Positions 3,993-24,361 of a stretch of 64,000 nucleotides of DNA are shown one piece after another. Numbering within the stretch: position 1 is the stretch's first letter; the number at the start of each line of letters is the position of its first letter. The position numbers were made by a program, and so were the translations under genes. Source of the DNA: an uncultured Thermodesulfobacteriota bacterium (GTDB taxonomy: Bacteria > Desulfobacterota > Desulfarculia > G963662305); the NCBI GenBank assembly GCA_964634465.1, contig CAZWLY010000004.1:160683-224682 (forward strand), read 5' to 3'. Under the pieces are notes generated by a model. That model saw nothing but the letters and a program-made list of their open reading frames with translations. It was not told where the DNA came from and ran no database searches.

Positions 3993-5381
3993 TCAATCGA
4001 CCCGGGACGACTCGGCCCGGCGGGTGATCTCGGCCAACCGCTCGGCGTTCAGGTCGTAGCGCCACAAGACGGGCAGGCTGATCGCCAGAAGCGCCGCCGG
4101 GGCGATGGAGAAGGCGACGATGATTCCGGTCAGGGCGCTTTCCGGCTGGACGGCCGTCTGTCCGGCCACCGTCTCCACGAATCCGGAGGCGCCCAGGACG
4201 AGCCCCACCAACAGCGCGCCGCCGGCCATGCCGGTCTTCTCGCCGGCGGTCCAGACCCCGGTGAAGATACCCTCGCGCCTGAGCCCCGAGTTGGCGTAGT
4301 CGGCCTGGATGGCGTCGGGCAGCATGGAGAAGGGAAAGAGCTGGATGCCGGCGTAGGCCGAGCCCATGATCGCCGTCTGGATGTAGAGGAGCGTCATCCT
4401 CTCGGCGCTGGCGGTAAGCAGGCTCAAGTCCATGACGGCGAACAGGGCCGAGGTGATCAGGTAGGCGTTGAGCTTGCCCAGCCGCCTGGAGACCCAGACC
4501 CACCAGGGCATGGTCACGATGGCCGGGGCGACGAAACAGAGGAACATCGGCGTGACCATGGTGTCCGGGCCCTTGATGATGTACTTGACGAAGTAGGGCA
4601 GGCTGGCCAGGATCGAGCCGACCGCGATCTGCTGGGGAAAGAAACCGATCATCAGGATCAGAAACGGCTTGTTTCCCCAGGCGATGGCCATCTGCTCCTT
4701 GAACGGCAACGTCGTCTCGACCTTGGTCGTGAACGGCGCCTTGGCCGTGCCCCAGACGGCGATGAGCATGACGATCAGACACACCGCGGCCAGGCTGACC
4801 GACATGACGGCGTAACCATGGCGGCCGCCGCCGGCGGCGGCGATGACGGCCGGGGCCGCCCCGCCGGCGATAAGGATGCCGGCGGTCATGAAGGCCATCC
4901 GAAAGGACATGATCGCGGTCCGCTCGTCGTAATCCTGGGTCATCTCGGCCGGCATGGCCACGTAGGGCACCTGGAAGAGAGTGTAGGCCGTGGCGCAGAG
5001 GATGAAGGCGATCATCACCCACCAGAACTTGGGCATGGGCGAGGCGAAGTCGGGCACGGCGAAGAGCAGGGCCAGGAAGACGGGCAGGGTCAGCGACCCG
5101 GCCAGCAGGTAGGGCCGCCGTCGGCCCCAGCGGGTCTGGGTCTTGTCCGAGAGGGCGCCGACGATGGGATCGGTGACGACGTCCCATATCTTGGGGATGA
5201 AGACGGCCAGGGAGGCCAGGGAGGCGGCGACGCCCAGGGTGTCGGTCATGAAGTACATCAAGAGCAGGCCCGGCAGGGCGGCGAACATGCCGGTGCCCAT
5301 GGAGCCGACGCCGTAGCTGAGGTAGATCGATCGGGGCAGCCTGCCGCCGGGGGTGGTGGTCTCGGTGCCGGCCATGGCCAA
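3993..5381 (-). CDS. MFS transporter, glycoside-pentoside-hexuronide (GPH) cation symporter family
   Basis: 12-TM profile. DKTQTRWGRRRPYLL matches the GPH/MelB family signature after TM2. Confidence 0.75.
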   Translation of the reverse strand: MAMAGTETTTPGGRLPRSIYLSYGVGSMGTGMFAALPGLLLMYFMTDTLGVAASLASLAVFIPKIWDVVTDPIVGALSDKTQTRWGRRRPYLLAGSLTLPVFLALLFAVPDFASPMPKFWWVMIAFILCATAYTLFQVPYVAMPAEMTQDYDERTAIMSFRMAFMTAGILIAGGAAPAVIAAAGGGRHGYAVMSVSLAAVCLIVMLIAVWGTAKAPFTTKVETTLPFKEQMAIAWGNKPFLILMIGFFPQQIAVGSILASLPYFVKYIIKGPDTMVTPMFLCFVAPAIVTMPWWVWVSRRLGKLNAYLITSALFAVMDLSLLTASAERMTLLYIQTAIMGSAYAGIQLFPFSMLPDAIQADYANSGLRREGIFTGVWTAGEKTGMAGGALLVGLVLGASGFVETVAGQTAVQPESALTGIIVAFSIAPAALLAISLPVLWRYDLNAERLAEITRRAESSRVD

Positions 5382-7945: not shown

Positions 7946-9682
7946 ATGCTCTGCTGTCACATCACCCACGAGGCCTCGCGCAAGTTCGGCGGCATCGGCG
8001 CCGTCCTGGCCGGGCTGATCGCATCCTCGGCCTACACCGAGGCATTCGACAAGACCCTTGTCTACGGGCCGCTGTTCGACCGAACAGGCCCGGTCGGCTC
8101 CCGGATCGAGGCCGGCGGCGAGGTGGTCTACTCCGGCCCGGACGGTTTCGACGACGGCGGCCTGGCCGACCTCTTTCGTCCCATTGAACGGCGCCACGGC
8201 GTCGGTCTGGTCTACGGCCGGCGGCTGATGGTCGATGAACTGGCGCCGGAACGCTCCCGTGAGGTGGACGTCGTCCTCATCGACGTGACGACCATGCCGG
8301 CCGAGAAGGCCGATCTTTTGAAGTACGGTCTGTGGGAGAACTTCGGCCTCGAGTCGGACCGCTACCCGGACTGGGACTACGAGCAGTACATTCGCCTGGC
8401 CGGCCCCTACCTGGACGTCGTCGAGGCCCTCTACCCCCAGGAGAGGGGCGCCGTCCACCTGGCCCACGAGTACATGGGCCTGCCCTCGGCCCTGACGGTC
8501 GTCTCGGCCCAGCGGGCCGGGCGGCGGACGGCGGACAAGACCTTCTTCTACGCCCACGAGGTCGCTCCGGCCCGGGCCATCGTCGAGAATCTGCCCGGCC
8601 ACGAGATCGCCTTCGACAACCTCCTCCGGCTGGGTCTGAAGGAGGGCCGGGTCTTGGAGGACGATTTCGGCTCCCAGGCCCACAACTATCGCTCCGAGCT
8701 GGTCAAACGGGCCGAGCATCTGACCGGCGTTCTGGCCGTCAGCGACAACATCCGGGACCAGTTGCTCTATTTTTACCCGGCCATCGGGGCCGATAGAATC
8801 CATGTCGTCTACAACGGCGTCGGCTTCGGGTCGATCGGCTTCGAGGACAAGATGAAAGACCGGGAGCTGATCAAGGATTACTGCGAGACGCTTTTCAACT
8901 ACCGGCCGGAGATCATCATCAGCCACGTCACCAGGCTGATCGTCAGCAAGGGTCTGTGGCGCGACGTCGCCTTCCTCTACCGCCTCGATGAACACCTGGC
9001 CCGGGCCGGGGTCAAGGGCTTCTACATCCTGGTCTCCAGCCTGATCGCCTCGGGCCGTCCCCACGACGAGATCAGGCGCATGGAGGCCGAGTACGGCTGG
9101 CCGGTCTTCCATCGCCGCGGCTGGCCGGACCTGGAGGGGGCCGAGGCGGACATCTACGAGTTTCTGACCCTGTTCAACGCCCGCTCCAGGGCGGTCAAGG
9201 GCGTCTTTCTCAACCAGTTCGGCTTCTCGAACGAGGCGGCCGGCAGCCGGGTGCCGGCCGGAGCCGACACCCTGACCCTGCGTTCGGCCAGCGACATGGA
9301 ACTGGGGCTGTCCACCTACGAGCCCTTTGGCATCGCCCAGTTGGAGACCTATCCCTTTGGCGGCGTGCCGGTCTTGAGCCGGGCCTGCGGCTGTTCGTTT
9401 CTTCTGGACGCCGCCGCGCCGAAGGATACCCACCTGGTAATCGATTTCGCCGCCCCGCCGGCCGAAATGGGGCTCGACGTCGATGACGCGAAGGCGCTCA
9501 AGAACATGTCGGCCGATACGCGCCGGCTTGTGGAGGAGGCGGTCATCGACCGCCGGGCGGCCGAAGCGTTCAAGCTCGTCTGGCCCGAACGGCGACGGGA
9601 GCTCTTCAATACCATGCGGGCCGCGGCCGCCGATCTGGGTTGGGAGGCCATCGGCCGGCGGGTGGTGGCGGCCATCGGCTGA
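7946..9682 (+). CDS. GT3-family (eukaryote-type) glycogen synthase-like glycosyltransferase
   Basis: N-terminal HITHEASRKFGGIGAVL resembles the FEVAWEVANKVGGIYTV motif of GT3 glycogen synthases. The C-terminal LSTYEPFGIAQLETYPFGGVPVLS aligns with the yeast Gsy2 segment [23 protein letters not shown]. 578 aa. Confidence 0.5.
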   Translation: MLCCHITHEASRKFGGIGAVLAGLIASSAYTEAFDKTLVYGPLFDRTGPVGSRIEAGGEVVYSGPDGFDDGGLADLFRPIERRHGVGLVYGRRLMVDELAPERSREVDVVLIDVTTMPAEKADLLKYGLWENFGLESDRYPDWDYEQYIRLAGPYLDVVEALYPQERGAVHLAHEYMGLPSALTVVSAQRAGRRTADKTFFYAHEVAPARAIVENLPGHEIAFDNLLRLGLKEGRVLEDDFGSQAHNYRSELVKRAEHLTGVLAVSDNIRDQLLYFYPAIGADRIHVVYNGVGFGSIGFEDKMKDRELIKDYCETLFNYRPEIIISHVTRLIVSKGLWRDVAFLYRLDEHLARAGVKGFYILVSSLIASGRPHDEIRRMEAEYGWPVFHRRGWPDLEGAEADIYEFLTLFNARSRAVKGVFLNQFGFSNEAAGSRVPAGADTLTLRSASDMELGLSTYEPFGIAQLETYPFGGVPVLSRACGCSFLLDAAAPKDTHLVIDFAAPPAEMGLDVDDAKALKNMSADTRRLVEEAVIDRRAAEAFKLVWPERRRELFNTMRAAAADLGWEAIGRRVVAAIG

Positions 9683-9728
9683 TCGGCCGCCGGGGCCGGC
9701 CCCGTCAGCCTGATCCAAACAACTTTTT

Positions 9729-10787
9729 TCAGGTCAAGACCCGGATCCGACCCTTGGGCTCGGCCTCCACCCGGCCGATGATCGACGCCTCGACCCCCCG
9801 GCCGGCCAGATCGGCCATCAGTCCCTCCGTCCGCTCCTCGGGTGCGGCCATCAGCAGGCCGCCCGAGGTCTGGGCGTCGGCCAGCACGCCGAGGATGAAT
9901 GGATCGACGCCTTCGGCGACGTCCACCGCCTTGGCGCAAAAGGCCTGGTTGGCGTGGCTGCCGGCCGGCGTCATCCCCATCCGGGCCAGGCCGAGAACCT
10001 CCTCCAGAATCGGCGTCCTGGCCGCCTCGATTATCAGGCCCACTCCCGAGGCCTGGGCCATCTCCAGGCCGTGGCCCAGGAGCCCGAAGCCGGTGATGTC
10101 GGTCGCCGCCCTGACCCCGGCCGCGATCATGGCCTCGGCCGCCCGGTCGTTGAGGTCGGCCATGACCTCGATCATCCGTCGCTCCAAATCGGGCGAGCCC
10201 AACCGGCCCTTGAGCGCCGTGGCCAGGATGCCCAGCCCCAGCGGCTTGGTCAGGATCAAGACTTGGCCGGGGCGGGCGGCGGCGTTGGTGACGACCCGGT
10301 CGGGGTGGACCAGGCCGGTGACCGACAGCCCGTACTTGATCTCGGGATCATCCACCGAATGCCCGCCGACCAAGAGCGCCCCGGCCTCCCGGATCTTGTC
10401 CAGACCGCCCTTGAGTATCTCCAGCAGGACGCCCTTGTCCATGTTCTTGGCCGGGAAGCAGACGATGTTCATCGCCGTCAGGGGCTTGCCGCCCATGGCG
10501 TAGACGTCGGACAGGGCGTTGGCGGCCGCGATCTGGCCGAAGGCGTAGGGGTCGTTGACGAGAGGGGTGAAGAAATCGACCGTCTGGATCAGGGCCGTGT
10601 CCTCGTTGAGTTTGATGACCCCGGCGTCGTCAGAGCTCTCCCGTCCGACCAGCAGACGGGGGTCGGCGTCGAGCGGCAGGCGGTCCAAAACTTCGGCCAG
10701 GTCCCCCGGCCCCAGTTTGGCCGCTCAACCGGCCGCGGTCACCGTCTCGGCCAGACGGGGAGGATCCTTGATTCGATCGGCGCTCAC
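9729..10787 (-). CDS. selD: Selenide,water dikinase SelD, a selenoprotein with in-frame UGA (Sec) at 10725..10727
   Basis: The track ORF 9729..10688 matches SelD (DFFTPLVNDPYAFGQIAAANALSDVYAMGGKP). Reading through the TGA at 10727..10725 (minus strand) continues in frame to a GTG at 10787 preceded by GGAG. This encodes VSADRIKDPPRLAETVTAAG-U-AAKLGPGDLAEVLDRLPLD, aligning to E. coli SelD ([24 protein letters not shown]) with Sec at the Cys17 position. Confidence 0.8.
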
Positions 10788-10872
10788 GTCTTCTCGCTCC
10801 TTACGTTCTCGGCTTCCAACAACTCGGCCAGTTTCCGCCCGCCGGGAGTCAGGCTCCGGCCGACGCGTTTGA

Positions 10873-11691
10873 TCAGGAAGAAGTCGCGTTGATGTTAAGC
10901 CCCTCCACCTCGAGCTGGACCAGGCGGCCCGAGCGGACGTCGTCGCCCACGGCCAGGCTGGAGAGGATCGACGCCCCCAGTCCGGCCAGGATGGCCTGGC
11001 GGACGGCCTGGGTCGAACCCAGCTCGGCGACGACGTTGAGGTCGGCCAGCGACACGCCCAGCCTGTCCAAAGCCTGGGCGGTCACCATCCGGGTCCCGGA
11101 GCCGGCCTCGCGCAACAGAAAAGGCAGGTCGGTCAAACCGGCCGGCTTCAGTCTCGGCCCGCCGGCCGGCTTCAGATCGGGCGGGGCGACCAGGATCAGC
11201 TCGTCCTGGCAGCAGGCGGCGTACTTCAGTTTGGGGTCGTCCAGCCTGGCCCCGATGACGCCCATCTCCAGCTCGCCGGCGGCGACCTTGAGGGCGATGG
11301 AGCGGGTGTCGGCCACGGTCAGCCGGACGATCAGCTCGGGATAGAGGGAGCGCATCTGGGCCAGGTAGGCCGGCAGAAGGTAGTGGCCGGGGATGGTCGA
11401 GCCGCCCACGGACAGCTCGCCCTTGACCTGCTCCGAGGCCTCGGCCACCGCCTCCAAGGCCTCGTCGCGCAGGGCGATGAGCTTCAAGGCGTACTCGTGG
11501 AGGACCTCAGCCTGACGGGTGGGGGCCACGCCCCGCCCCAGCCGGTCGAAGAGCCGGACGCCGAGTTCGTCCTCCAGGGCCTTGATGTGGCCGCTGACCG
11601 TCGGCTGGGACAGGTAGACCGCCTCGGCCGCCCGAGACAGCGAGCCCATCTCGTAGACTTTGGCGAAGACCTGGAGGCGATGAAGGTCCAT
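10873..11691 (-). CDS. LysR-family transcriptional regulator
   Basis: N-terminal HTH LHRLQVFAKVYEMGSLSRAAEAVYLSQPTVSGHIKALEDELGVRLFDR and LysR substrate-binding domain topology. Contains an in-frame 24-bp tandem duplication at 11138..11185. Confidence 0.85.
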   Translation of the reverse strand: MDLHRLQVFAKVYEMGSLSRAAEAVYLSQPTVSGHIKALEDELGVRLFDRLGRGVAPTRQAEVLHEYALKLIALRDEALEAVAEASEQVKGELSVGGSTIPGHYLLPAYLAQMRSLYPELIVRLTVADTRSIALKVAAGELEMGVIGARLDDPKLKYAACCQDELILVAPPDLKPAGGPRLKPAGLTDLPFLLREAGSGTRMVTAQALDRLGVSLADLNVVAELGSTQAVRQAILAGLGASILSSLAVGDDVRSGRLVQLEVEGLNINATSS

Positions 11692-11975
11692 TTAGACGTC
11701 ACCTATCTGGTTCATAGATGAAACCTATTATAAAGGACGGGTCGGGGAAGGCAAGGCAAGATAGAGACCGGAACCTTGTTGCGGCCTCCGGTGTGGTTTT
11801 TTGTTTACTTTTGGCTTGACAACCGGCTACCCGAGGAGTAGTTGCTACGCTTCTTCGAGCGGTCGTTTTGGTTCTCGGCCGGCCTTCCCAGGGCTAAAAC
11901 GATGGGTGTTTCACCTTTGTCGGACCCCATTCTTGGGATAGAATCTCTCAAGGGTTCCAATCGGGAGATCGGGCT

Positions 11976-14009
11976 ATGGGCGGCGTCTTTCTGCGGGCGG
12001 CCTACCACCACGAGTGGCTTCTGACCAACGGCCGGGGCGGCTACGCCCTGGGCTTCGGCAACTTCTTGAACGAGCGCAAGTACAATGGCTTGCTCGTCGC
12101 CGGGCTCGACGGCTTCAAGCGGGTCCACGTCCTGGCCTCGCTGGAGGAGGCGGTCGAGTGGCGTGGAGCCAGGTTCCACCTCGACGCCAACCACTACCCG
12201 GACACCATCCATCCCCAGGGTTACCGCCACATCGTCAAGTCCTGGCCCCGGCCCTACCCGAGCGCGCTCTACTCGGCCGACCCGGTCAATCCCGATTTTC
12301 TGATCCTCAAGGAGCTGTTCATGATCGCCGGGGTGAACGCGGTCGTGGTCAAGTACACTAACCTGGGCGCGTTCCCGATCAACTTCACCATCCGGCCCAA
12401 GCTGACCCTGCGCGACCACCACACCGTGAGCCGGCCCGGCCGCTGGGAGGCCGAGGAGGTGGAGATCGAGTTCCACGGCGACTCGTTCTCGGTCTACAAG
12501 CCGGGGCTCGAAGACGAGGTCTGGGGCTATACCGAGTCCGGCGGCATGGCCGATAACCGGATCGTTTTCAGAAACGTCTTCTACCCCCTGGAGGCGGCCC
12601 GGGGCTACGAGGCCGTGGAGGACCTGCTCTCCCCGGCCGACATCCACTTCCGCCTTACGCCGGGGGCCAGCAACCGGTTGGTCTTCTCCCTGGGGCGGCT
12701 CGAGGAGGCCGTGGTCCGGGCCGAGGCGGCCGAGGCCGACTACCGGCGCCTGCCCCTGCCGGCCGACCATCCGGAGCGACTGAAGGGCCAGCCCGACTGG
12801 CTGTCGCTGATCAGGTTCAACGAGCCGGTCTTTTCCCACGGTGAGTACCGCCGGATCCTGGAGGGAGCCGCGGCCGACTTCTTGACCGAGGGCGACTGCC
12901 TGGCCGGCTACCCCTGGTTCGGGCCGTGGGGCCGGGACAGCCTGATCGCGCTCTCCGGCATTCGGTTGTTGAAAGGCGGCCGCCGGCTGGCGGTGCGCAT
13001 CCTCAAGAAATACGGCCGGGCGATAAGAAACGGCCTCTTGCCCAACACCTTCGGCGAGGGCGGCCAGGGGCTCAACTATCTGTCGGTGGACGCTCCGCTG
13101 TGGTTCGTGCTGCGCTCGTTCGAGATCGCGCCCCGGGACAAGGAGCTTTTCGCCAGGGCGGGTAAGATCGTGCTCAACTACCTGTTCAACCAGGACCTGC
13201 CCTTCTTCGCCGCCGAGGACGGCTTGATCGAGCTGCGCGAAGGGCCCTGGGCGCTGACCTGGATGGACGCCAAAGTCTATGACGAGCCGGTCACGCCGCG
13301 CTTCGGCAAGCCGGTCGAGATCAACGCCCTGTGGTTCAACGCTCTCAACGGCCTCCTCAAGATGGCCGAGGCCCAGGGCTTGAAGGGCGGCGCCAGACTG
13401 GCCGCCCGACCCTACTCGATCTCCTGCCGGGACCTTGAGGACCTGGCCGGGCACGTCAAGCGCGGTCTGGCCGGTTTCGTCGGCGACGATTACCGCGACG
13501 ATTACCTGGCCGATCGGATCGACGCCTCCGGGCCGGTCTTTGAGATCCGGCCCAACGCCGTCATCGCCGCCGGCCTGCCCTTCGAGCCCTGGGCCAGAGA
13601 CGTCCAGGCCATGGTTCTGGAGACGGCCCGGCGCGAGCTTCTGACACCCTTCGGCCTCAGAAGCCTGAACGTCGGTCACCCGGCCTTCAAGAACAAGTAC
13701 CTCGGCGGTCAAAAACAGCGCGACCTGGCCTACCACCAGGGCACGGTGTGGGCCTGGCCTCTGGCCTACCTGGCCCGGCTGCACTTGAGGGTCCACGGCG
13801 ACAAACCGAAGCGGAAGCTGATCAAGGATCTCAGCGCTCTCATCTGGCGCTTCAGGGACGGCTTTCTCAAGGACCAGATCGCCTCGGTGGCCGAGATCTG
13901 GGACGGCCTGGAGCCGACCATTCCCAAGGGCTGTCCGGCCCAGGCTTGGTCGGTGATGGCCGTCCTGGAGATCGAGCACCTGATCGACGGACTGGAGGGC
14001 GGGCGGTGA
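11976..14009 (+). CDS. Amylo-alpha-1,6-glucosidase / glycogen debranching enzyme (GDE C-terminal, GH133-like)
   Basis: N-terminal GDE_N-like region plus TFGEGGQGLNYLSVDAPLWFV and DAKVYDEPVTPRFGKPVEINALWFNAL, characteristic of archaeal/bacterial amylo-1,6-glucosidases. Confidence 0.75.
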   Translation: MGGVFLRAAYHHEWLLTNGRGGYALGFGNFLNERKYNGLLVAGLDGFKRVHVLASLEEAVEWRGARFHLDANHYPDTIHPQGYRHIVKSWPRPYPSALYSADPVNPDFLILKELFMIAGVNAVVVKYTNLGAFPINFTIRPKLTLRDHHTVSRPGRWEAEEVEIEFHGDSFSVYKPGLEDEVWGYTESGGMADNRIVFRNVFYPLEAARGYEAVEDLLSPADIHFRLTPGASNRLVFSLGRLEEAVVRAEAAEADYRRLPLPADHPERLKGQPDWLSLIRFNEPVFSHGEYRRILEGAAADFLTEGDCLAGYPWFGPWGRDSLIALSGIRLLKGGRRLAVRILKKYGRAIRNGLLPNTFGEGGQGLNYLSVDAPLWFVLRSFEIAPRDKELFARAGKIVLNYLFNQDLPFFAAEDGLIELREGPWALTWMDAKVYDEPVTPRFGKPVEINALWFNALNGLLKMAEAQGLKGGARLAARPYSISCRDLEDLAGHVKRGLAGFVGDDYRDDYLADRIDASGPVFEIRPNAVIAAGLPFEPWARDVQAMVLETARRELLTPFGLRSLNVGHPAFKNKYLGGQKQRDLAYHQGTVWAWPLAYLARLHLRVHGDKPKRKLIKDLSALIWRFRDGFLKDQIASVAEIWDGLEPTIPKGCPAQAWSVMAVLEIEHLIDGLEGGR

Positions 14010-15322
14010 GAGTCCTCTTTCTGACCTGGGAGTTTCCCCCGCTGATCTCCGGCGGGCTGGGAACGGCCTGCTACGGCATGGTCCGCTCTTTGCTGGGCCG
14101 GGGGGTCGAGATCGACCTGGTCCTGCCGGCGAGGGAGGAGGTCTACTTCAAGCTCCGCTCGCCCCGGGACGCCGACGAGCTGCCGGTCTCTTTTCTGAGC
14201 GCCTCGGCGGCGGCCAAAGAGGTCGAGCGGACCGCCGAGCTGATCGAGCGGCTGGAACTGGTCGGCGTCAGCGCCATCCCCGAGACCTACCTCTCCCCGG
14301 CGGCCAGTCACCAGGCCCTGTGGACCGAGTTGGCCCGAACGTCCTCGGCCGGCCGAGCCAAGGTCTTCGCCCGGATCGAGAGACAGCTTTTGGGCGGCGA
14401 GAGGCTGTTCAGAAAGGTCCAGGAGATGGCCGACCGGGTCCAGCTCGTCGCCGACAGGCTCGACTTCGACCTCATTCACGCCCACGACTGGCTGACCTAC
14501 CCGGCCGGGCTGGCCCTGGCCGAGCTGTCCGGGAAGCCGCTGGTCGCCCACATCCACGCCACCGAGTTCGACCGGGCCGGCGGCGTCGGCGACGAGCGCA
14601 TCCACCAGATCGAGTACGCCGGCCTGTCCGCCGCCGACACGGTCATCGCCGTGTCGCGCTACACCGCCGAGATGGTCATCAACCGCTACCGGATCTGGCC
14701 GGCCAAGATGCGGGTCGTCCACAACGCCTTCGACCTGCCTCCGGTGAGGCTGGCGGACAAACGCCGGATCTTCAAACACCCGCTGGTCCTCTACCTGGGC
14801 CGGATCACCGTCCAGAAGGGGCCGGACTACTTCCTGGAGGTGGCCCGCCGGGTCCTGAAGCGCCACCCCAAGACCCAGTTCGTCATGGCCGGCGCCGGCG
14901 ACATGATGCGCTCGATCCTTCACCGCTCGGCCTCGATGCGCTTGAGGCAGCGCTTTCTCTTCACCGACTTTCTGAACCGCCGCCAGGTGGAAGAGATCTT
15001 GAAAGCGGCCGACATCTTCATCATGCCCTCGGTCTCCGAGCCCTTCGGCATCGTCCCCCTGGAAGCCATGGCCCACGGCGCGGCGGCCATCATCTCCAAA
15101 CAGTCGGGCGTGGCCGAGGTTTTGACCAACGTCCACAAGGTCGATTTCTGGGACGTGGACCAGATGGTCGATCTGGTCTGCCGGCTCATCGAGGACCCGG
15201 AGGAGAGGCTGGCCCTGGCCCGGGCCGGCCAGGAGGAGGTGTCGCGCATCCAGTGGGACGAGGCGGCCGAGAAGATCGAGGCGGTCTACGCCGAAACCCT
15301 CGAGACGGCCGGGCGGAGGTAG
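14006..15322 (+). CDS. Archaeal-type (GT4/GT5-like) glycogen or alpha-glucan synthase
   Basis: Start GTG at 14006 overlaps the stop of the upstream gene (GTGA). VRVLFLTWEFPPLISGGLGTACYGMVRSLLGRGVEIDLVLP resembles the N-terminus of Pyrococcus-type glycogen synthases. C-terminal GT-B E...FG...E motif: IMPSVSEPFGIVPLEAMAHG. Confidence 0.65.
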   Translation: MRVLFLTWEFPPLISGGLGTACYGMVRSLLGRGVEIDLVLPAREEVYFKLRSPRDADELPVSFLSASAAAKEVERTAELIERLELVGVSAIPETYLSPAASHQALWTELARTSSAGRAKVFARIERQLLGGERLFRKVQEMADRVQLVADRLDFDLIHAHDWLTYPAGLALAELSGKPLVAHIHATEFDRAGGVGDERIHQIEYAGLSAADTVIAVSRYTAEMVINRYRIWPAKMRVVHNAFDLPPVRLADKRRIFKHPLVLYLGRITVQKGPDYFLEVARRVLKRHPKTQFVMAGAGDMMRSILHRSASMRLRQRFLFTDFLNRRQVEEILKAADIFIMPSVSEPFGIVPLEAMAHGAAAIISKQSGVAEVLTNVHKVDFWDVDQMVDLVCRLIEDPEERLALARAGQEEVSRIQWDEAAEKIEAVYAETLETAGRR

Positions 15323-15325
15323 GCG

Positions 15326-16519
15326 GTGCTCAACATCGTCTTCTACTTCCAGGTCCACCAGCCCTATCGACTGCGGCCCTACAGCGTCCTCGACATCGGC
15401 CGGGACCACGACTACTTCGACGAGCGCCTCAACCGGATGGTGGCCGAAAAGGTCGGCCACAGGTGCTATCTGCCGACCAACCGCCTCTTCCTGGAGCTGA
15501 TCGAGCGCTTCGAGGGGAGATTCAAGATCGCCTTTTCGATTACCGGCACCGCCGTGGAGCAGTTCAAACGCTACACGCCCGAGGTGCTCGATTCGTTCAA
15601 GGCCCTGGCCGCCACCGGCTGCGTCGAGTTCCTGGGCGAGACCTATTACCACTCTTTGGCCTTTCTCTTCGACGAGGAGGAATTCCTGGCCCAGGTCAGG
15701 CTGCACAAGGAGTTGATGCAGCGGGAGTTCGGCTTCACGCCGATCGTCTTTCGAAACACCGAGTTGATCTACCAGGACGAGCTGGGCGAGCTGGTGGCCG
15801 ACCTGGCCGGCTTCAAGGTCGTCCTGGCCGAAGGGGCCGACCGGGTGCTCGATTGGCGTTCGCCGCTGTACGCCTACCAGAACTACTCCCGGCGGCTGTT
15901 TTTGCTCTTGAAGTACTACACCCTCTCCGACGACATCGCCTTCCGCTTCTCGGATCGCTCCTGGGCCGAGTGGCCGCTGAGCGTAACCAAGTTCGTCGAT
16001 TGGGTGGCCCGGCTCGGCCTCAATGAGCACCGCGGCCGGAACCTTTTTTTGAACCTGTTCATGGACTACGAGACCTTCGGCGAGCACCAGTGGGCCGAGA
16101 CGGGCATCTTCGAGTTTCTTCGCCGGCTGCCCGGGGAGGTTCTGAAGCAGCCCCACCTCGGCTTCGCCTGGCCCTCGGACGTCCTCGACCTGACCGACTA
16201 CCCGACCGAGGCGCTGTCCGTGCCCCAGCCGGTCTCCTGGGCCGACACCGAGCGCGACCTTTCGGCCTGGATGGAGAACGATCTGCAGCTCAACGCCCTG
16301 GAATCGTTCTATATCCTCCTGGAGACGATCAAAGAGCAGGGCCGGAACGATCTTCTGGAAGAGGCTCGGCGGCTGTCCACCTCGGATCATTTCTATTACA
16401 TGTCGACCAAGTACTTCCAGGACGGCGACGTCCACAAGTACTTCTCGCCCTACGGCGCGCCCGAGGAGGCCTATCTTTATTACATGAACGCCCTGGCCGA
16501 TTTAGAGGAGAGGCTGTAG
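15326..16519 (+). CDS. Glycoside hydrolase family 57 protein (alpha-amylase / 4-alpha-glucanotransferase type)
   Basis: VFYFQVHQPYRL, the hallmark N-terminal GH57 motif, with overall GH57 catalytic-domain composition. Confidence 0.8.
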   Translation: MLNIVFYFQVHQPYRLRPYSVLDIGRDHDYFDERLNRMVAEKVGHRCYLPTNRLFLELIERFEGRFKIAFSITGTAVEQFKRYTPEVLDSFKALAATGCVEFLGETYYHSLAFLFDEEEFLAQVRLHKELMQREFGFTPIVFRNTELIYQDELGELVADLAGFKVVLAEGADRVLDWRSPLYAYQNYSRRLFLLLKYYTLSDDIAFRFSDRSWAEWPLSVTKFVDWVARLGLNEHRGRNLFLNLFMDYETFGEHQWAETGIFEFLRRLPGEVLKQPHLGFAWPSDVLDLTDYPTEALSVPQPVSWADTERDLSAWMENDLQLNALESFYILLETIKEQGRNDLLEEARRLSTSDHFYYMSTKYFQDGDVHKYFSPYGAPEEAYLYYMNALADLEERL

Positions 16520-16726
16520 GATGTACTCTTCCCCGCCACGACCTCGATTCCGGCTCGGCCCGTCGGTCGGGTTTGAGCCTTCTTCACGGCCGCGGCCGAT
16601 ATTCCGGGCGAGGCGCTGCGCCCGCTTGGCGGGCCTCGGCGATCTTGGCCGACCCGTTCCGGTCCGGCCAAGCCGCCGGGTGGGGATTACATGAACGCCC
16701 TGGCCGATCTGGAGGAGAGGCTGTAA
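16480..16726 (+). repeat. 40-bp direct repeat of the GH57 gene 3' end (16480..16519 and 16687..16726), separated by a 167-bp GC-rich spacer
   Basis: ttacatgaacgccctggccgatTTAgaggagaggctgtaG versus ttacatgaacgccctggccgatCTGgaggagaggctgtaA. Both encode YMNALADLEERL* and all three differences are synonymous. The second copy is not attached to any long ORF. Confidence 0.8.
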
Positions 16727-16785
16727 CTTGGGGGTATAATGGGACTGTCCGGAACCGAGCCTGACAGTGTAATCAGGGAGAAACG

Positions 16786-19338
16786 ATGAACCTGCGCCGC
16801 TTCTACGTCAAGCCTCACATGCCCGGCCGGCTCAAGCCGCTGTTCGAGCTGGCCTACAACGTCTGGACTACTTGGGACCAGGAGGCGATCAGGCTCTTTT
16901 CGCGCATCGACCCGGCCTTGTTTCGAAAGGTCCACCACAACCCGGTCGAGTTCATCCATCGTCTGGGCAGCGAGCGCCTGGCCGAGCTGGCCAAGGACCC
17001 CGGCTTCCTGTTCGAGCTGGAGCAGGTCTGGTACAAGTTCATCACCTACCTCTCCTTTGAGGGGACCTACTTGAGCGAGGCCGGCGAGGAGAAGTCCTTC
17101 GGCGAGGGCGACATCATCGCCTATCTGTCCATGGAGTTCTCCCTCCACGAGTCGATCCCCATCTATTCCGGCGGCCTGGGAATCTTGGCCGGCGACTACC
17201 TGAAGGCCGCCTCCGACGTCGGCCTGCCCCTGGTCGGCTTCGGATTGTTGTACCGCTTCGGTTACTTCACCCAGCGCATCAACCTCCACGGCCTCCAGGA
17301 AGAGGAGTACAAGGAGAACGTCTGGCACCTGAAACCGGTCGAGGAGGTGCTCGACCCGGAGGGCCAGCCGATCGTCTTCGGCGTCCCCCTCAAGGATGTC
17401 GAGGCGGCGGTCAAGCTGTGGAAGATCAACGTCGGGCGGACCACGCTCTATCTTCTGGACACCAACCTGGAGGACAATCCGCCCCAGGTCCGGGCGATCA
17501 CCGACATGCTCTACGATCCCGACCGGGACGACCGGATCGAGCAGGAATTGATCCTGGGCCGGGGCGCCCGGGTGGCCATGCGCCGGCTGGGCATCGAGCC
17601 CAAGGTCTACCACTTGAACGAAGGCCACTCGGCGTTCATCATCCTGGAGCGTTTGAAGGAATTGATGCTGGGCGAGGGCCGGTCTTTCGAGGAGGCGGCC
17701 AACATCATCCGCAACTCGACCGTCTTCACCACCCACACCCCGGTGATCGAGGGCAACGAGCATTTCGACGAGGAGTTGATCCTCGATTACGCCGCCGCCG
17801 ATCTCAAGAAACTGGGGCTGTCGGCCGACCGGTTCCTGGACCTGGGTCGGGTCTCGGGCCGGGGCAAGAGCTTTTGGCTGCCGGCCCTGGCCATTCGCTT
17901 CTCCCGCTTTACCAACGGCGTCTCGCCGATCCACGCTCAGGTGAGCCGCGGTATGTGGCGGCCGCTGTTCGCCGAGTTGCACGAGCTGGAGATACCGATC
18001 CACTCGATCAACAACGGCGTCCACCTGCCGACCTGGATGAGCAAGGACATCGCCTTCCTGTTCGACCGTTACGTCGGGCCGGACTATCTCCACAAGGCCG
18101 AGAAGCCCGAAGTCTGGGAGAAGGTCGCCGCCATCCCGGACGCCGAGTTGTGGGAGGCCCATCTTCGGGCCAAGCGGGACCTGATCTCCTTCGTTCGCCG
18201 CCGCCTGATGGCCGAGATGGAGCGCAAGGGCTTTGCCGAGTCCAAGCTTCGTGAGATCGAGGACGTGCTTTCGCCCCACGCCCTGACCATCGGCTTCGCC
18301 CGCCGCTTCGCTCCCTACAAGCGGGCCAACCTCATTCTTTCCAATCCGGAGCGGCTCAAGGCCATCCTGACCCATCCCCAGCGACCGGTCCAGATCATCT
18401 TCTCGGGCAAGTCCCACCCGGCCGACCTGGAAGGCAAGAGGATCATCCAGCAGGTGTTGCGCTTCATCCGGGACCACGAGCTGGAGACCAGGGTCGTCTT
18501 TGTCGAAGACTACGACATGGACGTCGCCCGGCACCTGGTCACCGGGGTGGACGTCTGGCTCAACACGCCCCTCAAACCCCTGGAGGCCAGCGGCACCTCG
18601 GGCATGAAGGCCGGCATCAACGGCGTGCTGAACTTGAGCGTCATGGACGGCTGGTGGCCGGAGTGCTACAACGGCGAGAACGGCTGGGCCATCACCGCCG
18701 GTGAGGCCATCGAGAACCTGGAGGCCAAGGCCGCGGCCGAGGCCAACCAGATATACGAACTCCTGGAGGAAGAGATCGCCCCGATGTTCTTCGAGCGCTC
18801 CGAGGGCGACATCCCCCGGGACTGGGCCCAGTGGATGAAGAACGCCATCGAGACCGTCGGCCGGGGCTTCAACATCCACGCCATGCTCAGGGGTTACCTC
18901 TACTCCTTTTACCTCCCCGAGACCGAGACCAGCGCCCGGCTGGCGGCCGACAAGGGCAAGGGGCTCAAGGCCCTGACCAAGCTCAAGAAAGACATCGATC
19001 GCTACTGGTCCAAGATCTATATCCGGGACTACTTCACCTCCATCGACGACCACGTTCCGGCGGTGGAAGAGGAGGTGACGGTCGATTGCTACGTCCAGGT
19101 GGACGACGCTCCGGTCGAACTCGTTATGGCCGAGGTGGTCTACACCTACGGCGAAGACGGCGGCCGCCTGGAGCGTATTCCCCTGAGTTTCCAGGAGTCT
19201 TACCCGGACAAGGTGGCCAAGTTCAGCGGTTCGTTCAGGCTCAAGGAGCCGGGCCTCCAGGAGATGGGGGTCAGGGTCCGGCCGGCCGACCCGCTCTTTT
19301 CGGAGCTCAACCCCAATTACGTCATCTGGGCCGGATAG
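16786..19338 (+). CDS. glgP: Alpha-glucan phosphorylase (GT35, maltodextrin/glycogen phosphorylase)
   Basis: 850 aa with an N-terminus typical of the alpha-glucan phosphorylase family (MNLRRFYVKPHMPGRLKPLFELAYNVWTTWDQEAIRLF). The long ORF 16687..19053 on the minus strand is its antisense artifact. Confidence 0.85.
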   Translation: MNLRRFYVKPHMPGRLKPLFELAYNVWTTWDQEAIRLFSRIDPALFRKVHHNPVEFIHRLGSERLAELAKDPGFLFELEQVWYKFITYLSFEGTYLSEAGEEKSFGEGDIIAYLSMEFSLHESIPIYSGGLGILAGDYLKAASDVGLPLVGFGLLYRFGYFTQRINLHGLQEEEYKENVWHLKPVEEVLDPEGQPIVFGVPLKDVEAAVKLWKINVGRTTLYLLDTNLEDNPPQVRAITDMLYDPDRDDRIEQELILGRGARVAMRRLGIEPKVYHLNEGHSAFIILERLKELMLGEGRSFEEAANIIRNSTVFTTHTPVIEGNEHFDEELILDYAAADLKKLGLSADRFLDLGRVSGRGKSFWLPALAIRFSRFTNGVSPIHAQVSRGMWRPLFAELHELEIPIHSINNGVHLPTWMSKDIAFLFDRYVGPDYLHKAEKPEVWEKVAAIPDAELWEAHLRAKRDLISFVRRRLMAEMERKGFAESKLREIEDVLSPHALTIGFARRFAPYKRANLILSNPERLKAILTHPQRPVQIIFSGKSHPADLEGKRIIQQVLRFIRDHELETRVVFVEDYDMDVARHLVTGVDVWLNTPLKPLEASGTSGMKAGINGVLNLSVMDGWWPECYNGENGWAITAGEAIENLEAKAAAEANQIYELLEEEIAPMFFERSEGDIPRDWAQWMKNAIETVGRGFNIHAMLRGYLYSFYLPETETSARLAADKGKGLKALTKLKKDIDRYWSKIYIRDYFTSIDDHVPAVEEEVTVDCYVQVDDAPVELVMAEVVYTYGEDGGRLERIPLSFQESYPDKVAKFSGSFRLKEPGLQEMGVRVRPADPLFSELNPNYVIWAG

Positions 19339-20079: not shown

Positions 20080-22311
20080 CTAGCCGGGGCCGGAATCGCG
20101 CCGGCGGTCCCGGCCGGTCGATATAAGCGCCCCGTCCAAGACTTCCCGAACCTTTTGGAGCAGGCCGGCGAGGCGGTAGGGCTTGCCGATGAATCCGGCC
20201 ACGCCTTTGTCCGCCAATTCTTCGATCCGGTCTTCCACCGGATAGCCGCTGGCGATGATGATCTTCACCTCCGGATCGAGCTTCATCAGCTCCTCGAGAC
20301 ATTGATCCCCGCCCATGCCGGGCATTCCCAAATCGAGGATGACCAGCTCGATCTCGCCCCGTTGGTCCCGGTAGATATCGAGGGCCGCCTTTCCGCTCGA
20401 GGCGGTCAGGACCCGATAGCCGTACTGACTCAACAGGTCCTGGGCGACCTCCAGGATCGGGATCTCATCGTCCACGACCAGAATCGTCTCGACGCCGGCC
20501 GGGATGTCCTCTTCCGGTTCCTCGACGGCTCCTTCTGCGGCCGCACTCGCCGCCGGCAGGTAGACCTTGAAGATGGTCCCCTGGTCGATTTCGCTGTAGC
20601 AGGTGATCTGGCCGCCGTGGGCCTTGACGATGCCGTAGGCCGTGGCCAGTCCCAGCCCGGTGCCTTGGCCGATCTTCTTGGTGGTGAAGAAGGGCTCGAA
20701 TATGCGGTCCAGGGTTTCCCTGTTCATGCCCGTACCGGTGTCCTGGATCGACAACTGGACGTAACGCCCAGGCTTCAATCCCAGATAGCGACGGCAGTGC
20801 TCCTTGTCCAGGAACACATTCTCCGTCTTGAAGATCAACCGGCCGCCGTCGGGCATGGCGTCGCGCGCGTTGGTGGCCAGATTCAGGATGATCTGCTCCA
20901 ACTGGGTCGCATCGGCGTCGATCGGCCACAAGTCCTCGGCCAGGTGGACCTCGATGTCGATCGTCTTGGGGAGGGCGCTTCCCAGCAACCCGGCGGCCTG
21001 CCCGATCTCGTCGTTGAGGTCGAGCGACTGTTTTTGACTTTCCACCTTGCGGCTGAAGGTCAAAAGCTGGCGGACCAGCTCGGTGGCCCTCTGGATCGAC
21101 TTGTCTATCTTGGTCAGGTACCCGGCGGCCGAATCGGAGGGGTCGCCCTTTATCAGCAACAGTTGGACGCTTCCGGAGATGACCTGGAGAATGTTGTTGA
21201 AGTCGTGGGCCACCCCGCCGGCCAGGGCGCCCACCGCTTCCATCTTTTGGGCCTGTCTGAGCTGAGCCTCCATCTTTCTTTGTTCGGTGACGTCACGCAG
21301 GTTGATGACGCTGCCGACTGGGCCGCCGTCGCTATTCCGCATCACCGCGGCGCTGACGCTGACGTCGAGAATCCGGCCCCACTTGTCGTAGCGGCGGGTT
21401 TGAACACTGGAGAAACTCTCGCCCCGCTTGACCCGTTCGATTATCTCCAATGTCTCGGGCTTGGCCTCCTGGGGCACGAAATCTATTCGCCGGCCCAAGA
21501 CCTCCTCCAGTCTCCAGCCAAAGACGCGGGTGAAAGCCGGATTGAGATAGGTGACCCTGCCGGTCATGTCGTAGAGCACCACCGGGTCGGGCGCGACCTC
21601 CAGTATCTTGTGGTAGCGCTCTTCGCTCTCCCGGAGCGCCTCTCTGGCTCTTTTATCGTCGGTTACGTCGATGAAGCTCTCCACGATGCCCAACCTTTCG
21701 CCGTCAGCCCCCAGGTACGGCGCCGCCGTGGCGAAGCAAGAGATCGTCGCCCCGTTGCGGAGGTCCATTTCGGCTTCATATTCGACAAGTTCCCGCCCCT
21801 CCATGATGGCGGTCATCGGGCAATCGAGGGTGTGGCAGAGGGGGACGGTCCAGGTTTCGTGGCACTTCCGGCCGACTATTTCGTCCTTGGGGAGACCCAA
21901 CAGGCCGGAAAGTCTATCGTTTACTCGAAGGACGGTGAAGTCCCTGCCGATCACGGTCATGGCCATGGCCGGGGCGTTGAACGCCTGATCCAGTTCGGCG
22001 TAGGCGAGCTTGAGGGAGTTCTCCGAACGTTTGATCGATTTGAAGAGAGGCGTTATCCAGGCCAGGCCGATCACCATGAGCGCTGAAATCGCCAGCGCAA
22101 CCAGTTCCACGCTCAAGTCACGGGGGAGAACCCCGTTTCCCGACGCGACATGATAGAGAGTGATGCTTCGCCGCCAGCCCATCAGGATGATGGCGAGAGA
22201 CAACACCAGCCATCCGCTCCGCCGGCCAGTGATGGAGATCAAGCGCAGGGCCATGAAGGCGGCCGCGAACTGCAGCAGGACGGATGTCCCCAGAATCGAC
22301 AAGATGAGCAT
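20080..22311 (-). CDS. Hybrid sensor histidine kinase (N-terminal TM region, PAS domains, HisKA, HATPase_c, C-terminal receiver)
   Basis: The H-box AHDFNNILQVISG and the N/G1/G2 boxes of the HATPase domain are present. C-terminal receiver ILVVDDEIPILEVAQDLLSQYGYRVLTASSGKAALDIY...LDLGMPGMGG. Confidence 0.85.
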   Translation of the reverse strand: MLILSILGTSVLLQFAAAFMALRLISITGRRSGWLVLSLAIILMGWRRSITLYHVASGNGVLPRDLSVELVALAISALMVIGLAWITPLFKSIKRSENSLKLAYAELDQAFNAPAMAMTVIGRDFTVLRVNDRLSGLLGLPKDEIVGRKCHETWTVPLCHTLDCPMTAIMEGRELVEYEAEMDLRNGATISCFATAAPYLGADGERLGIVESFIDVTDDKRAREALRESEERYHKILEVAPDPVVLYDMTGRVTYLNPAFTRVFGWRLEEVLGRRIDFVPQEAKPETLEIIERVKRGESFSSVQTRRYDKWGRILDVSVSAAVMRNSDGGPVGSVINLRDVTEQRKMEAQLRQAQKMEAVGALAGGVAHDFNNILQVISGSVQLLLIKGDPSDSAAGYLTKIDKSIQRATELVRQLLTFSRKVESQKQSLDLNDEIGQAAGLLGSALPKTIDIEVHLAEDLWPIDADATQLEQIILNLATNARDAMPDGGRLIFKTENVFLDKEHCRRYLGLKPGRYVQLSIQDTGTGMNRETLDRIFEPFFTTKKIGQGTGLGLATAYGIVKAHGGQITCYSEIDQGTIFKVYLPAASAAAEGAVEEPEEDIPAGVETILVVDDEIPILEVAQDLLSQYGYRVLTASSGKAALDIYRDQRGEIELVILDLGMPGMGGDQCLEELMKLDPEVKIIIASGYPVEDRIEELADKGVAGFIGKPYRLAGLLQKVREVLDGALISTGRDRRRDSGPG

Positions 22312-22444
22312 GTCGTTCCCACTACCGGCCGGTGGAAGGCTTTCGGGCGCGCCTCACTGCGCCGCCACGCCGGAAAGGCAAGGATCGATTCGCTGAGGGG
22401 GCGGCTGGTTAAGCCGCCCGGCCGCCCCCTCCCAAGGCCCGGTC

Positions 22445-24361
22445 TCAAAAGTCATGAAGATCGTCTTCATCCAGCGGGATGACCTTGTCGGGCGAAACTT
22501 CATGACCGATTTGCCGGGGAACGGTTCGGACCTCCCGCCCGGCTTCGTTTTGCCGCCGGACCAGACTCACCCATCTCAACCTCGAACCGCCCGTTTTTTT
22601 CCGGTCGCCGTTGGCGCCGCCGACTACGGCCATCAACTGATCGACCATGTCCTTCATCACTTCGGCCTGGGCGCTCATTTCCTCGGAGGCCGAGGCGCTC
22701 TCCTCGGCGCTGGAGGCGTTGCCCTGGGTCACCTGATCGAGCTGGCCCATGGCGATGTTGATCTGATCGACGCCCTGAGCCTGTTCGCTGGAGGCGGCGG
22801 CTATCTCGGTCACCAGTCCCGAGACCTTGTTGACCGCGTCGGTGACCTCCTTGAATCCGTCCTGGGTCTTGGCGACCAGGTCCGAACCTTGGCCGATTCG
22901 GTTGACCATGTCGTCCACCAGGGCCTGGGTGCCCTTGGCCGCCTCGGCCGCCCGCATGGCCAGGTTGCGGACCTCGTCGGCGACCACGGCGAAGCCGGCG
23001 CCCGCCTCTCCGGCCCGGGCCGCCTCCACGGCGGCGTTGAGAGCGAGCAGGTTGGTCTGGAAGGCGATCTCGTCGATGGACTTGACGATCTTGCCGGTCT
23101 CTCCGCCCAACTCGGCGATCTGCTCCATGGAGCCGGCCATCTGGGCCATGGCCTGGCCGGCGTCGATCACCGTCTGTTTGGCCTCCCTCATCAGCGAGTC
23201 GGCTTGGCCGGCGTTGTCGGCGTTGGTCCTGATCATCGAGGACATCTCCTCCAGGGACGCAGACGTCTCTTCCAGCGCCGCCGCCTGTTCGCTGGCCCCT
23301 TCGGCCAGGCTCTGGGAGGATGAAGAGACCTGGGTCGAAGCCGAAGCCACCTGCTCGGCGCCGGCGCCGAGAGCGTCGATGATGCGGTTGAGCGGCTTGG
23401 TGATGGAGCGCGAGATGAAGAAACTCAGCAGCAGGCCGACGAGGATGGCCGCCGCCGAGATTATCAGGGCCACCATCCGCTGGGCCGCGGCGTCCTTCAC
23501 CATCGTCTTCTCTATTTCGGCGCTGACTTTGGCGCTGGCGGCCTGAAGGCTGCGCCCGCTCTCGAACATGCCTTCCACCGCTTTTTTCTGGGCCAAGGTG
23601 AAGGTGAGGGCTCGCTGGAACGATTTCTGGTAATCCTTGGCTTCCTTCTCCAGCCTGGCCATCGCCTGTCTCATCTGGGCGCTTTTGAAGCGGGAGAGCA
23701 GGGTACCGGCTTTGGCCACCATGGCGGCGGTGTTTTTCGACGCCTGATCGGCGTAGCCTTGCTCGCCGGTAAGGATGAACTCTTTTTCCTGGCGGCGGGC
23801 GTTCAGGACGTGAGTCACGATTTCGCTCAGCGTATCTCGCTTGGCTATCAGATCGTCTATCACCTCTATAGAGGCGTTTTCGTTTCGGGCCTTCAAGTAC
23901 TTCGCCCGCATGTCGGTCATCAGATCGAGGGCCAACCGCTCGGCCTCCTTGGCCTGGCGGAGCATGTCGGCCTGGGCCTCTTTTCGCCGTGCGCTCGCCT
24001 CGTGATAACGGTCGAACTGCTCTTTATACCCGGCCAGATAGTTCAGAATTCCTCTCATCTCGTTTTTATGGACGTCGTTGGCCAGACTCGTCCCCAGCCG
24101 TTGGGCGTCGCCCTTCAACGCCTCGAGTTTGTCTTTGATGTCCGCGGCGACTTCCTCTTCGCCGGTGATGACGTATTTTTTCTCCTGCTCGATCACCCGC
24201 AGCATGTCTCTCACCAGCCGATTGACCGCCAATACGCCCTGGCTCTCCTCTTCCAGACCGGTCAGAGCCCAATGGGCCACTATGGCCGCAGCGCAAAGCA
24301 TGACCAATACCGACCCAAAGCCGATCGCCAGTTTTACCCCGACTCTTACGTTGTTAAGCAT
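22445..24361 (-). CDS. Methyl-accepting chemotaxis protein (N-terminal helical sensor, HAMP, MCP signalling domain)
   Basis: Highly conserved MCP tip [40 protein letters not shown]. About 75% identical in the signalling domain to the second MCP at 62387..64000. Confidence 0.85.

Follow-up and report, generated by a model that had tools for sequence, protein, structure and literature searches.

Glycogen synthesis is ascribed to GT5 glycosyltransferases in bacteria, archaea and plants, to GT3 enzymes in eukaryotes and some prokaryotes, and to the GlgE route. Prokaryotic GT3 synthases are known from Bacteroidota, PVC, DPANN and Methanosarcinales and the family is widespread in prokaryotes; archaeal clusters of the Picrophilus torridus type combine a glycogen debranching enzyme (GDE) of family GH133, a GT4 glycosyltransferase and an alpha-amylase-type GH57 enzyme (PMC11046441). 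The same review asks what primes prokaryotic GT3 synthases, leaves open which role the cluster-embedded GT4s play, and asks whether the GH57 "amylase" is the missing branching enzyme in archaea (Chem Rev 2024; PMC11046441). The same core, together with a GT35 alpha-glucan phosphorylase, is encoded in a 64-kb stretch of contig CAZWLY010000004.1 from an uncultured Thermodesulfobacteriota bacterium (the window), close to a 578-amino-acid (aa) retaining GT-B glycosyltransferase of an unnamed family (here GTX578, of family GTX). The four-gene core and prokaryotic GT3s are already known from the literature. The five genes, all open reading frames (ORFs) on the plus strand where they had been called (Table 1), were originally predicted to form a non-classical alpha-glucan cluster, and this cluster is real: the same genes are neighbors in many unrelated lineages, so their clustering is not due to chance. 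We propose that the locus is probably a cytoplasmic, non-classical storage module for glycogen or a similar alpha-glucan, in which GTX578, a highly divergent relative of GT3, has the role of synthase.

Relation of GTX578 to GT3 synthases

At threshold, GTX578 falls into none of the Pfam and NCBIfam families, GT3 (PF05693) included; its best Pfam signal is PF13439 (22.7 bits, cutoff 28.5), and it scores 31.6 bits against TIGR02149. Phmmer and profile searches of solved structures return weak GT4/GT5 matches only (GlgM at 1e-4, SS4 and Pyrococcus abyssi GlgA), with no GT3 chain among them. Among 53 family members, PF13439 is matched weakly by 47 (best 1.3e-6) and PF05693 by five, every one below threshold (best 3.6e-5). 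The family comprises more than 2,399 clusters at 90% identity (among 8,000 candidates scored) and occurs in at least 595 GTDB species representatives from several mostly anaerobic phyla, including Thermodesulfobacteriota (Desulfarculia, Thermodesulfobacterium, Caldimicrobium, Thermodesulfatator), Planctomycetota (Phycisphaerae, Sedimentisphaerales, Pirellulales), Cloacimonadota, Spirochaetota and Delongbacteria. The closest homologue among these representatives, which do not include the window genome, is 60% identical and comes from a Desulfarculia metagenome-assembled genome (MAG). In the source databases members are called "hypothetical protein" or "glycosyltransferase", if named, and we found neither literature nor Pfam or NCBIfam models covering the family, which may already be filed in CAZy.

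The relation to GT3 emerges from the predicted structure. An AlphaFold2 model of GTX578 (predicted local distance difference test 94.2, predicted template modeling score 0.92) has a GT-B fold that is nearest to solved GT3 synthases across most of the protein: the top 37 Foldseek matches are all eukaryotic GT3s (C. elegans GS, yeast Gsy2p, human GYS1; E 1e-19 to 1e-16, TM 0.57-0.71), followed by PaGS (GT5, 5.6e-15) and GlgM (4e-14). As a control, the model of the neighboring 438-aa GT4 ranks Gsy2p 43rd. For a sequence profile of GT3, a human GYS1 core proved 99% identical to the database GYS1, which then served as query and yielded 150 diverse GT3 representatives, many of prokaryotic size (~590 aa); a hidden Markov model (HMM) was built from 98 full-length GT3s. 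This HMM matches all 53 GTX members with 18.6-88.6 bits, and GT4 and GlgA controls with 25-37 bits. Profile-profile comparison with hhalign aligns GTX with GT3 end to end in both (99.6%, E 1.6e-24, 512 columns), as against the C-domain only for the operon GT4 (95.9%, 5e-9, 220 columns), such that the full-length homology of GTX to GT3 appears to exceed that to GT4/GT5. We regard this comparison as decisive for the GTX-GT3 relation at the level of sequence.

The hhalign alignment pairs HITHEAxxKIGGIGAV of GTX with FEVSWEVCNKVGGIYTV of GT3, FKFxLWExFGIxS with LKxxLWExxxIDS, HEYMG with HEWxSG, RLVxSKG with GRYEFxNKG, and KGVFINQFGF with VKVIxYPxYL, and places the GTX segment SIYEPFGIAQxE on its GT3 counterpart. 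GT3 synthases and GTX thus share K-x-G-G-I near the N-terminus, an LWE-containing segment of the N-domain, HE(W/Y), H-x5-R, R-x4/5-K-G, (V/I)-F-x-x-(F/Y), YEP(F/W)G...E and a C-terminal Trp. Mean column identity in the alignment of the 53 GTX sequences is 52%, and H5, H8, E9, K13, G15, G16, H174-E175-Y176, H204, R210, R330, K335 and E459-x7-E467 are invariant, a signature expected of an active retaining GT-B enzyme. The retaining GT-B motifs K-x-G-G, R...K-G and E-x7-E are all present and align with their GT3 equivalents; they are common to GT4 and GT5 too, hence non-discriminating. H-x5-R was dropped as a GT3-specific marker, given that the operon GT4 carries the same motif (HATEFDR).

A neighbor-joining tree of GTX, GT3 and GT4/GlgA recovers each group as monophyletic, but its distances are saturated (0.92-0.94) and the sister placement of GTX and GT3 in it is uninformative. 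Pairwise identity of GTX to any GT3 sampled is at most 25%. Judged by predicted fold and profile-level ancestry, GTX is GT3-like and appears as a distinct deep sister family of GT3, outside GT3 by current models. The original prediction of a GT3-like protein is therefore borne out by fold and profile-profile comparison, but not as membership of GT3, against which stand the missing PF05693 match, the low identity and the separate clade. Its term "eukaryote-type" is misleading, as GT3 is widespread in prokaryotes, with at least 600 metagenome loci (see also PMC11046441).

A prokaryotic module with GT3 or GTX

To describe the gene neighborhoods of GTX we surveyed 80 species representatives over a distance of 10 kb from the GTX homologue. 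Alpha-glucan genes lie within this distance in 20 of the 80 species, and in eight of the 38 loci whose flanks each extend for 5 kb or more. A 20-kb neighborhood is less than 1% of a 3-Mb genome by our own estimate, and the association is therefore far above chance. The usual partner is a GDE-GT4-GH57-GT35 block, found in at least three arrangements and several phyla: GTX heads a co-directional five-gene operon GTX-GDE-GT4-GH57-GT35 (loci L007, L008, L014, L018), closes the block in convergent orientation to GT35 (L010, L012, L015, L019, L027, L041, L043), or lies downstream of GH57 (L005). The MAGs with glucan-linked loci are labeled Delongbacteria, UBP11, Spirochaetota, Planctomycetota, "Myxococcales", "Pseudomonadota" and Anaeroferrophillacea. 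In one Spirochaetota locus a GT5 GlgA is near GTX.

Other recurrent GTX neighbors are lineage-specific housekeeping genes, and we rejected queC/E/F, rho and coaE (Planctomycetota) as well as RimK, M48 and a PLP enzyme (Thermodesulfobacteria) as functional clues. A UDP-glucose/GDP-mannose dehydrogenase family protein (~547 aa) is encoded ~150 nucleotides (nt) upstream of GTX in six loci of the Delongbacteria/UBP11 group (L007, L008, L009, L011, L018, L032), which may hint at UDP-sugar metabolism or be mere lineage synteny. In two Phycisphaerae a homologue of the GH13 branching enzyme GlgB of Escherichia coli lies ~1.7 kb upstream of GTX (L048, 6482-8287, 4e-52; L049, 6433-8250, 3e-56), a tie to glycogen metabolism different from that of the GDE-GT4-GH57-GT35 block.

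Bona fide GT3 genes were surveyed in the same way, by searching metagenome contigs with a profile built from 45 GT3s of prokaryotic type (80 loci, L086-L163 among them). GT3 adjoins homologues of the glucan proteins of the window in 28 of these loci, and in eight of the 15 with long flanks, the partners being GH57 (25 loci), GT4 (23), GT35 (7) and GDE (5). A pair of GT4 and alpha-amylase-type GH57 very often directly precedes GT3 (23-25 of the 80 loci). Locus L144 (5328-14227) reads GDE-GT4-GH57-GT3-GT35, and further full operons occur in L151, L150, L133, L163 and L155. The (GDE)-GT4-GH57-GT3-GT35 operon of the metagenomes has the partners of the window cluster in nearly the same order, with 27-55% identity to the window proteins, but the place that GTX takes in the window lineage and its relatives is filled there by a bona fide GT3. 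GT3 synthases and GTX thus share their operon partners, and a conserved prokaryotic module exists, (GDE)-GT4-GH57-(GT3 or GTX)-GT35, of which the window has the GTX version. We found no paper on the five-gene operon or on the GT4-GH57-GT3 arrangement.

It is mainly because GTX fills the GT3 slot of this conserved module that we assign GTX578 a putative role as synthase. The recurrence of the operon across phyla also bears on the suggestion that the pathway was horizontally assembled: it does not point to a one-off assembly in the window genome. A recent transfer of the cluster into this genome is likewise unsupported, as GC content (0.63-0.68) and GC at third codon positions (0.89-0.92) across the cluster are the same as in the flanks, without discontinuity.

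Partner enzymes and alternative readings

The family calls made earlier for the debranching enzyme, the GH57 and the GT35 hold in Pfam and NCBIfam scans. The GDE belongs to GH133 (PF06202 264 bits, PF12439 163 bits), scores 232 bits against the equivalog TIGR01561 (cutoff 364), and is homologous (1e-14) to the glucosidase domain at the C-terminus of eukaryotic GDEs of known structure. The GT35 scores far above the TIGR02094 cutoff, belongs to the DUF3417 subgroup and matches a solved "alpha-glucan family phosphorylase" (9l6i, E 4.9e-166) and the glycogen phosphorylase of Segatella copri (20yr, 3.6e-165); the paper on the S. copri enzyme does not discuss gene context.

The 397-aa GH57 has PF03065 and no further domain, and begins directly with the catalytic domain, without N-terminal extension. 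Its motifs (HQPYR, RNTE146LI, FMD247YETFGEH, DHFYY) hold a complete catalytic machinery, with E146 as nucleophile and D247 as proton donor, both invariant in 31 operon homologues; no close solved structure was found. The alpha-amylase fingerprint of GH57 has an Arg starting conserved sequence region (CSR) 3, a Thr at logo position 23 and Tyr-Tyr ending CSR-5, with a mean length of 414 aa, whereas branching enzymes have ~520-550 aa with a C-terminal domain, a Trp or other aromatic residue starting CSR-3, Leu at position 23, and a CSR-5 that ends in Phe and a non-aromatic residue (Martinovicova and Janecek, PMC6037648). With R143-N-T-E146, D247-Y-E-T250 and F-Y357-Y358 the window enzyme agrees with the alpha-amylase subgroup in residues and length, and differs from branching enzymes in length, in its single domain and in having Arg, Thr and Tyr-Tyr as diagnostic residues. 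By these criteria it is predicted to be of the alpha-amylase and not of the branching-enzyme type. The earlier idea that a GH57 replaces the GH13 branching enzyme is correct as to family, but with this fingerprint the replacement is hypothetical.

In the reading that we favor, GTX578 would elongate an alpha-1,4-glucan at its non-reducing end from NDP-glucose, as its GT3 homology, intact motifs and position relative to the operon suggest, and the GT4 would act as accessory glucosyltransferase, in initiation, building-block synthesis or as a second synthase. From family membership, the GH57 may cut and trim or rearrange chains by hydrolase/transferase chemistry (branching is speculative), the GDE may remove alpha-1,6 stubs and the GT35 may release glucose-1-phosphate, the latter two together breaking the glucan down into glucose-1-phosphate and glucose. 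What the analysis shows directly is the gene content, the fold, the remote homology and the conservation of catalytic motifs and synteny; which substrate, product and donor nucleotide are used, and how the two transferases divide the labor, are predictions in this scheme.

That division could also be reversed or split, with the GT4 elongating and GTX578 being a glycogenin-like initiator, a maltose-1-phosphate-type synthase or a second synthase with another donor. The 438-aa GT4 has GlgM as its best sequence match of solved structure (1.5e-22, 28% identity) and P. abyssi glycogen synthase also among its closest characterized relatives, some sources label the operon GT4 glycogen synthase, and cluster-embedded GT4s have been speculated to be uncharacterized glycogen synthases or GlgM-like (Chem Rev, PMC11046441). 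Operons moreover combine the GT4 with GT3 as well as with GTX, which makes it clear that the two transferases act together. We nevertheless consider a reversal unlikely. GTX aligns end to end with the elongating GT3 synthases, with their motifs kept, whereas the GT4 lacks the Lys of K-x-G-G (K-T-G-G-L), reading LISGGLG, and no GlgE (GH13), the user of maltose-1-phosphate, is seen in the flanks, where the only GH13 queries were the GlgB and GlgX of E. coli. The GT4 also stays below the GlgM cutoff (TIGR02149, 121 bits against 302) and reaches no GlgA (GT5) family model at threshold. Of the "archaeal-type GT4/5 glycogen synthase" named originally, the GT4 type is retained and the GT5 attribution is not, as neither GlgA models nor K-T-G-G-L are matched, and the protein is a candidate initiator, maltose-1-phosphate synthase or second synthase.

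Several observations weigh against GTX578 as the synthase of a storage pathway. PF05693 does not match it even at E<=10, and GTX578 alone scores 24.4 bits against the GT3 HMM, no higher than the control proteins from GT4 and GlgA. Most of the ~80 template columns of the central helical insert of GT3 are gaps in GTX. In the window GTX578 is set apart from the operon and may have its own transcription, and in 60 of the 80 species the GTX gene has no adjoining glucan genes. The GTX family and the operon GT4 carry only generic source names. Finally, the window has no NDP-glucose pyrophosphorylase and no recognized branching enzyme, and the pathway is incomplete as seen: E. coli GlgC, GlgB, GlgX, GalU and MalQ find no tblastn match within it, a result that applies to these 64 kb and not to the rest of the genome, in agreement with the absence of the classical glgC and glgB noted before, and with GlgC and GalU as queries no pyrophosphorylase was found in the 80 GTX or the 80 GT3 loci either. 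In eukaryotic GT3s the coiled-coil insert serves tetramerization and an Arg-cluster helix serves binding of, and control by, glucose-6-phosphate; the C-terminal Arg positions of this Arg-rich regulatory helix are not kept in the GTX family consensus, and quaternary structure and regulation probably differ between the two families.

GTX578 might then be a generic GT4-like enzyme for another glycoconjugate, such as an envelope sugar or compatible solute, with its glycogen neighbors incidental. The sole Pfam signals of GTX are weak and of GT4 type, the JGI label on several members is "glycosyltransferase involved in cell wall biosynthesis", and the separation by selD and a LysR gene, like the many species without adjoining glucan genes, would fit. 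We judge this improbable, since GTX stands beside single-copy glucan genes in several phyla and arrangements far above chance, GT3 is its top structural and profile match over the full length, and no envelope or solute genes recur among its neighbors. A mainly catabolic cluster for imported maltodextrin or glycogen-like glucans, with minor transferases, is more improbable still: GH57 amylase, GH133 and GT35 are degradative enzymes, an MFS_2 glycoside transporter is encoded 2.6 kb upstream and a Cloacimonadota survey takes GH57 and GH133 as starch degradation (PMC12590816), but many lineages have two conserved and, by their motifs, catalytically intact glycosyltransferases within or beside the operon, the GH57 starts at its catalytic domain (no signal-peptide predictor was run), and storage-polymer operons such as E. 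coli glgBXCAP normally pair synthesis with breakdown genes.

If the synthase role holds, an unannotated sister family in the GT3 slot would be a further type of glycogen synthase, and would explain carbon storage in many uncultured anaerobes without recognizable glgA among Thermodesulfobacteriota, Planctomycetota, Cloacimonadota, Spirochaetota and Delongbacteria. The pairing of GT4 and GH57 beside GT3 and GT3-like genes would provide candidates for the three questions of the review cited above (PMC11046441), and metagenome surveys that equate GH57 and GH133 with starch degradation may mislabel an internal storage pathway. A bolder version, which we find doubtful, ranks GTX as a new family at the level of CAZy, or as a deep subfamily of GT3, with alpha-glucan synthases in many anaerobes. 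The two functions visibly missing from prokaryotic GT3-type pathways would then come from its constant partners, the GT4 as a glycogenin-like initiator or building-block synthase and the GH57 as the branching enzyme, and the whole would amount to a complete pathway independent of GlgA (GT5), GlgB (GH13) and glycogenin.

Surroundings of the cluster and known systems

The window ORFs were assigned to families by Pfam and NCBIfam scans at curated thresholds (Table 1). The start of the GT4 gene overlaps the GDE stop and GH57 begins 4 nt past the GT4 stop; 267 nt separate GH57 from GT35. We read GDE, GT4 and GH57 (and GT35) as a translationally coupled set, to which likely roles only are assigned. 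A promoter candidate from a consensus scan, which is weak evidence, lies 32 nt 5' of the GDE start.

Table 1. Features of the alpha-glucan cluster and its surroundings, in window positions
Feature	Position	Strand	Evidence or remark
GTX578, 578-aa retaining GT-B glycosyltransferase, unnamed family	7946..9682	+	ORF listing
selD, selenide, water dikinase	9729..10787	-	TIGR00476 3.9e-105; convergent with GTX578
LysR regulator, selenium-metabolism-associated	10873..11691	-	NF040786 257.4 bits (cutoff 250); HTH_1 and LysR_substrate
Sigma-70-like promoter candidate for GDE-GT4-GH57(-GT35)	11917..11944	+	Consensus scan, 9/12 positions matching
GH133-type amylo-alpha-1,6-glucosidase (GDE), 677 aa (GDE_N and GDE_C)	11976..14009	+	PF06202 1.8e-78, PF12439 9.3e-48
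GT4-type retaining glycosyltransferase, 438 aa	14006..15322	+	Glycos_transf_1, Glyco_transf_4, Glyco_transf_5
GH57, alpha-amylase subgroup (predicted), 397 aa	15326..16519	+	PF03065 2.3e-69
GT35 alpha-glucan phosphorylase, DUF3417 type, 850 aa	16786..19338	+	TIGR02094 772 bits (cutoff 192); PF11897 and PF00343
DUF6141 protein, 189 aa	7292-7861	+	85 nt upstream of GTX578
MFS_2 (glycoside-pentoside-hexuronide type) sugar transporter	3993-5381	-	1.9e-92
PAS/HisKA/HATPase/receiver hybrid kinase, methyl-accepting chemotaxis protein and CheW	20080-24928	-	

As originally described, the cluster is split by a selD/LysR pair (identified by TIGR00476 and NF040786), both on the minus strand, which occupies the interval between 9682 and 11976. 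The two genes form one unit, with LysR divergent from the GDE operon. This is a self-contained selenium unit inserted between GTX578 and GDE, outside glucan metabolism. The selD frame runs upstream of its listed ORF start (10688) through an in-frame TGA at 10725-10727 (read-through translation ...TAAG*AAKLGPGDL...), and translation probably starts at the GTG at 10787-10785, which an AAGGAG ribosome-binding site precedes by 9 nt. The position of the TGA we take to be that of the catalytic Cys of GAGCGCK in E. coli SelD, and the selD product is probably a selenoprotein.

The flanks hold unrelated functions: the MFS_2 transporter on the opposite strand, a DnaB_C-like ATPase, a PAS histidine kinase, a methyl-accepting chemotaxis protein and CheW. 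The signaling block downstream has no evident connection to the glucan genes. In none of the 80 other species does a homologue of the DUF6141 protein adjoin the GTX gene, and its pairing with GTX578 seems specific to the window genome.

Among known systems, the mycobacterial GlgM/GlgE route resembles the locus in that GlgM is the nearest solved sequence to the operon GT4, yet the likeness stays at the low identity and sub-cutoff TIGR02149 score given above, and no GlgE, TreS or Pep2 is seen near the window GT4. E. coli glgBXCAP likewise brings genes for synthesis and degradation of a storage glucan together in one operon, and both systems have a GT35, but the window has no homologue of GlgC, of the GH13 GlgB or of GlgX; its synthase candidate is GT3-like in place of GT5, its debranching enzyme GH133 in place of GH13, and its GT35 of a different subgroup. 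The archaeal clusters of the Picrophilus torridus type have the GH133-GT4-GH57 core in common with the locus. In comparison with these, the core in the window is bacterial, is joined by a DUF3417-type GT35 and a putative GT3-like synthase, and recurs in many bacterial phyla.

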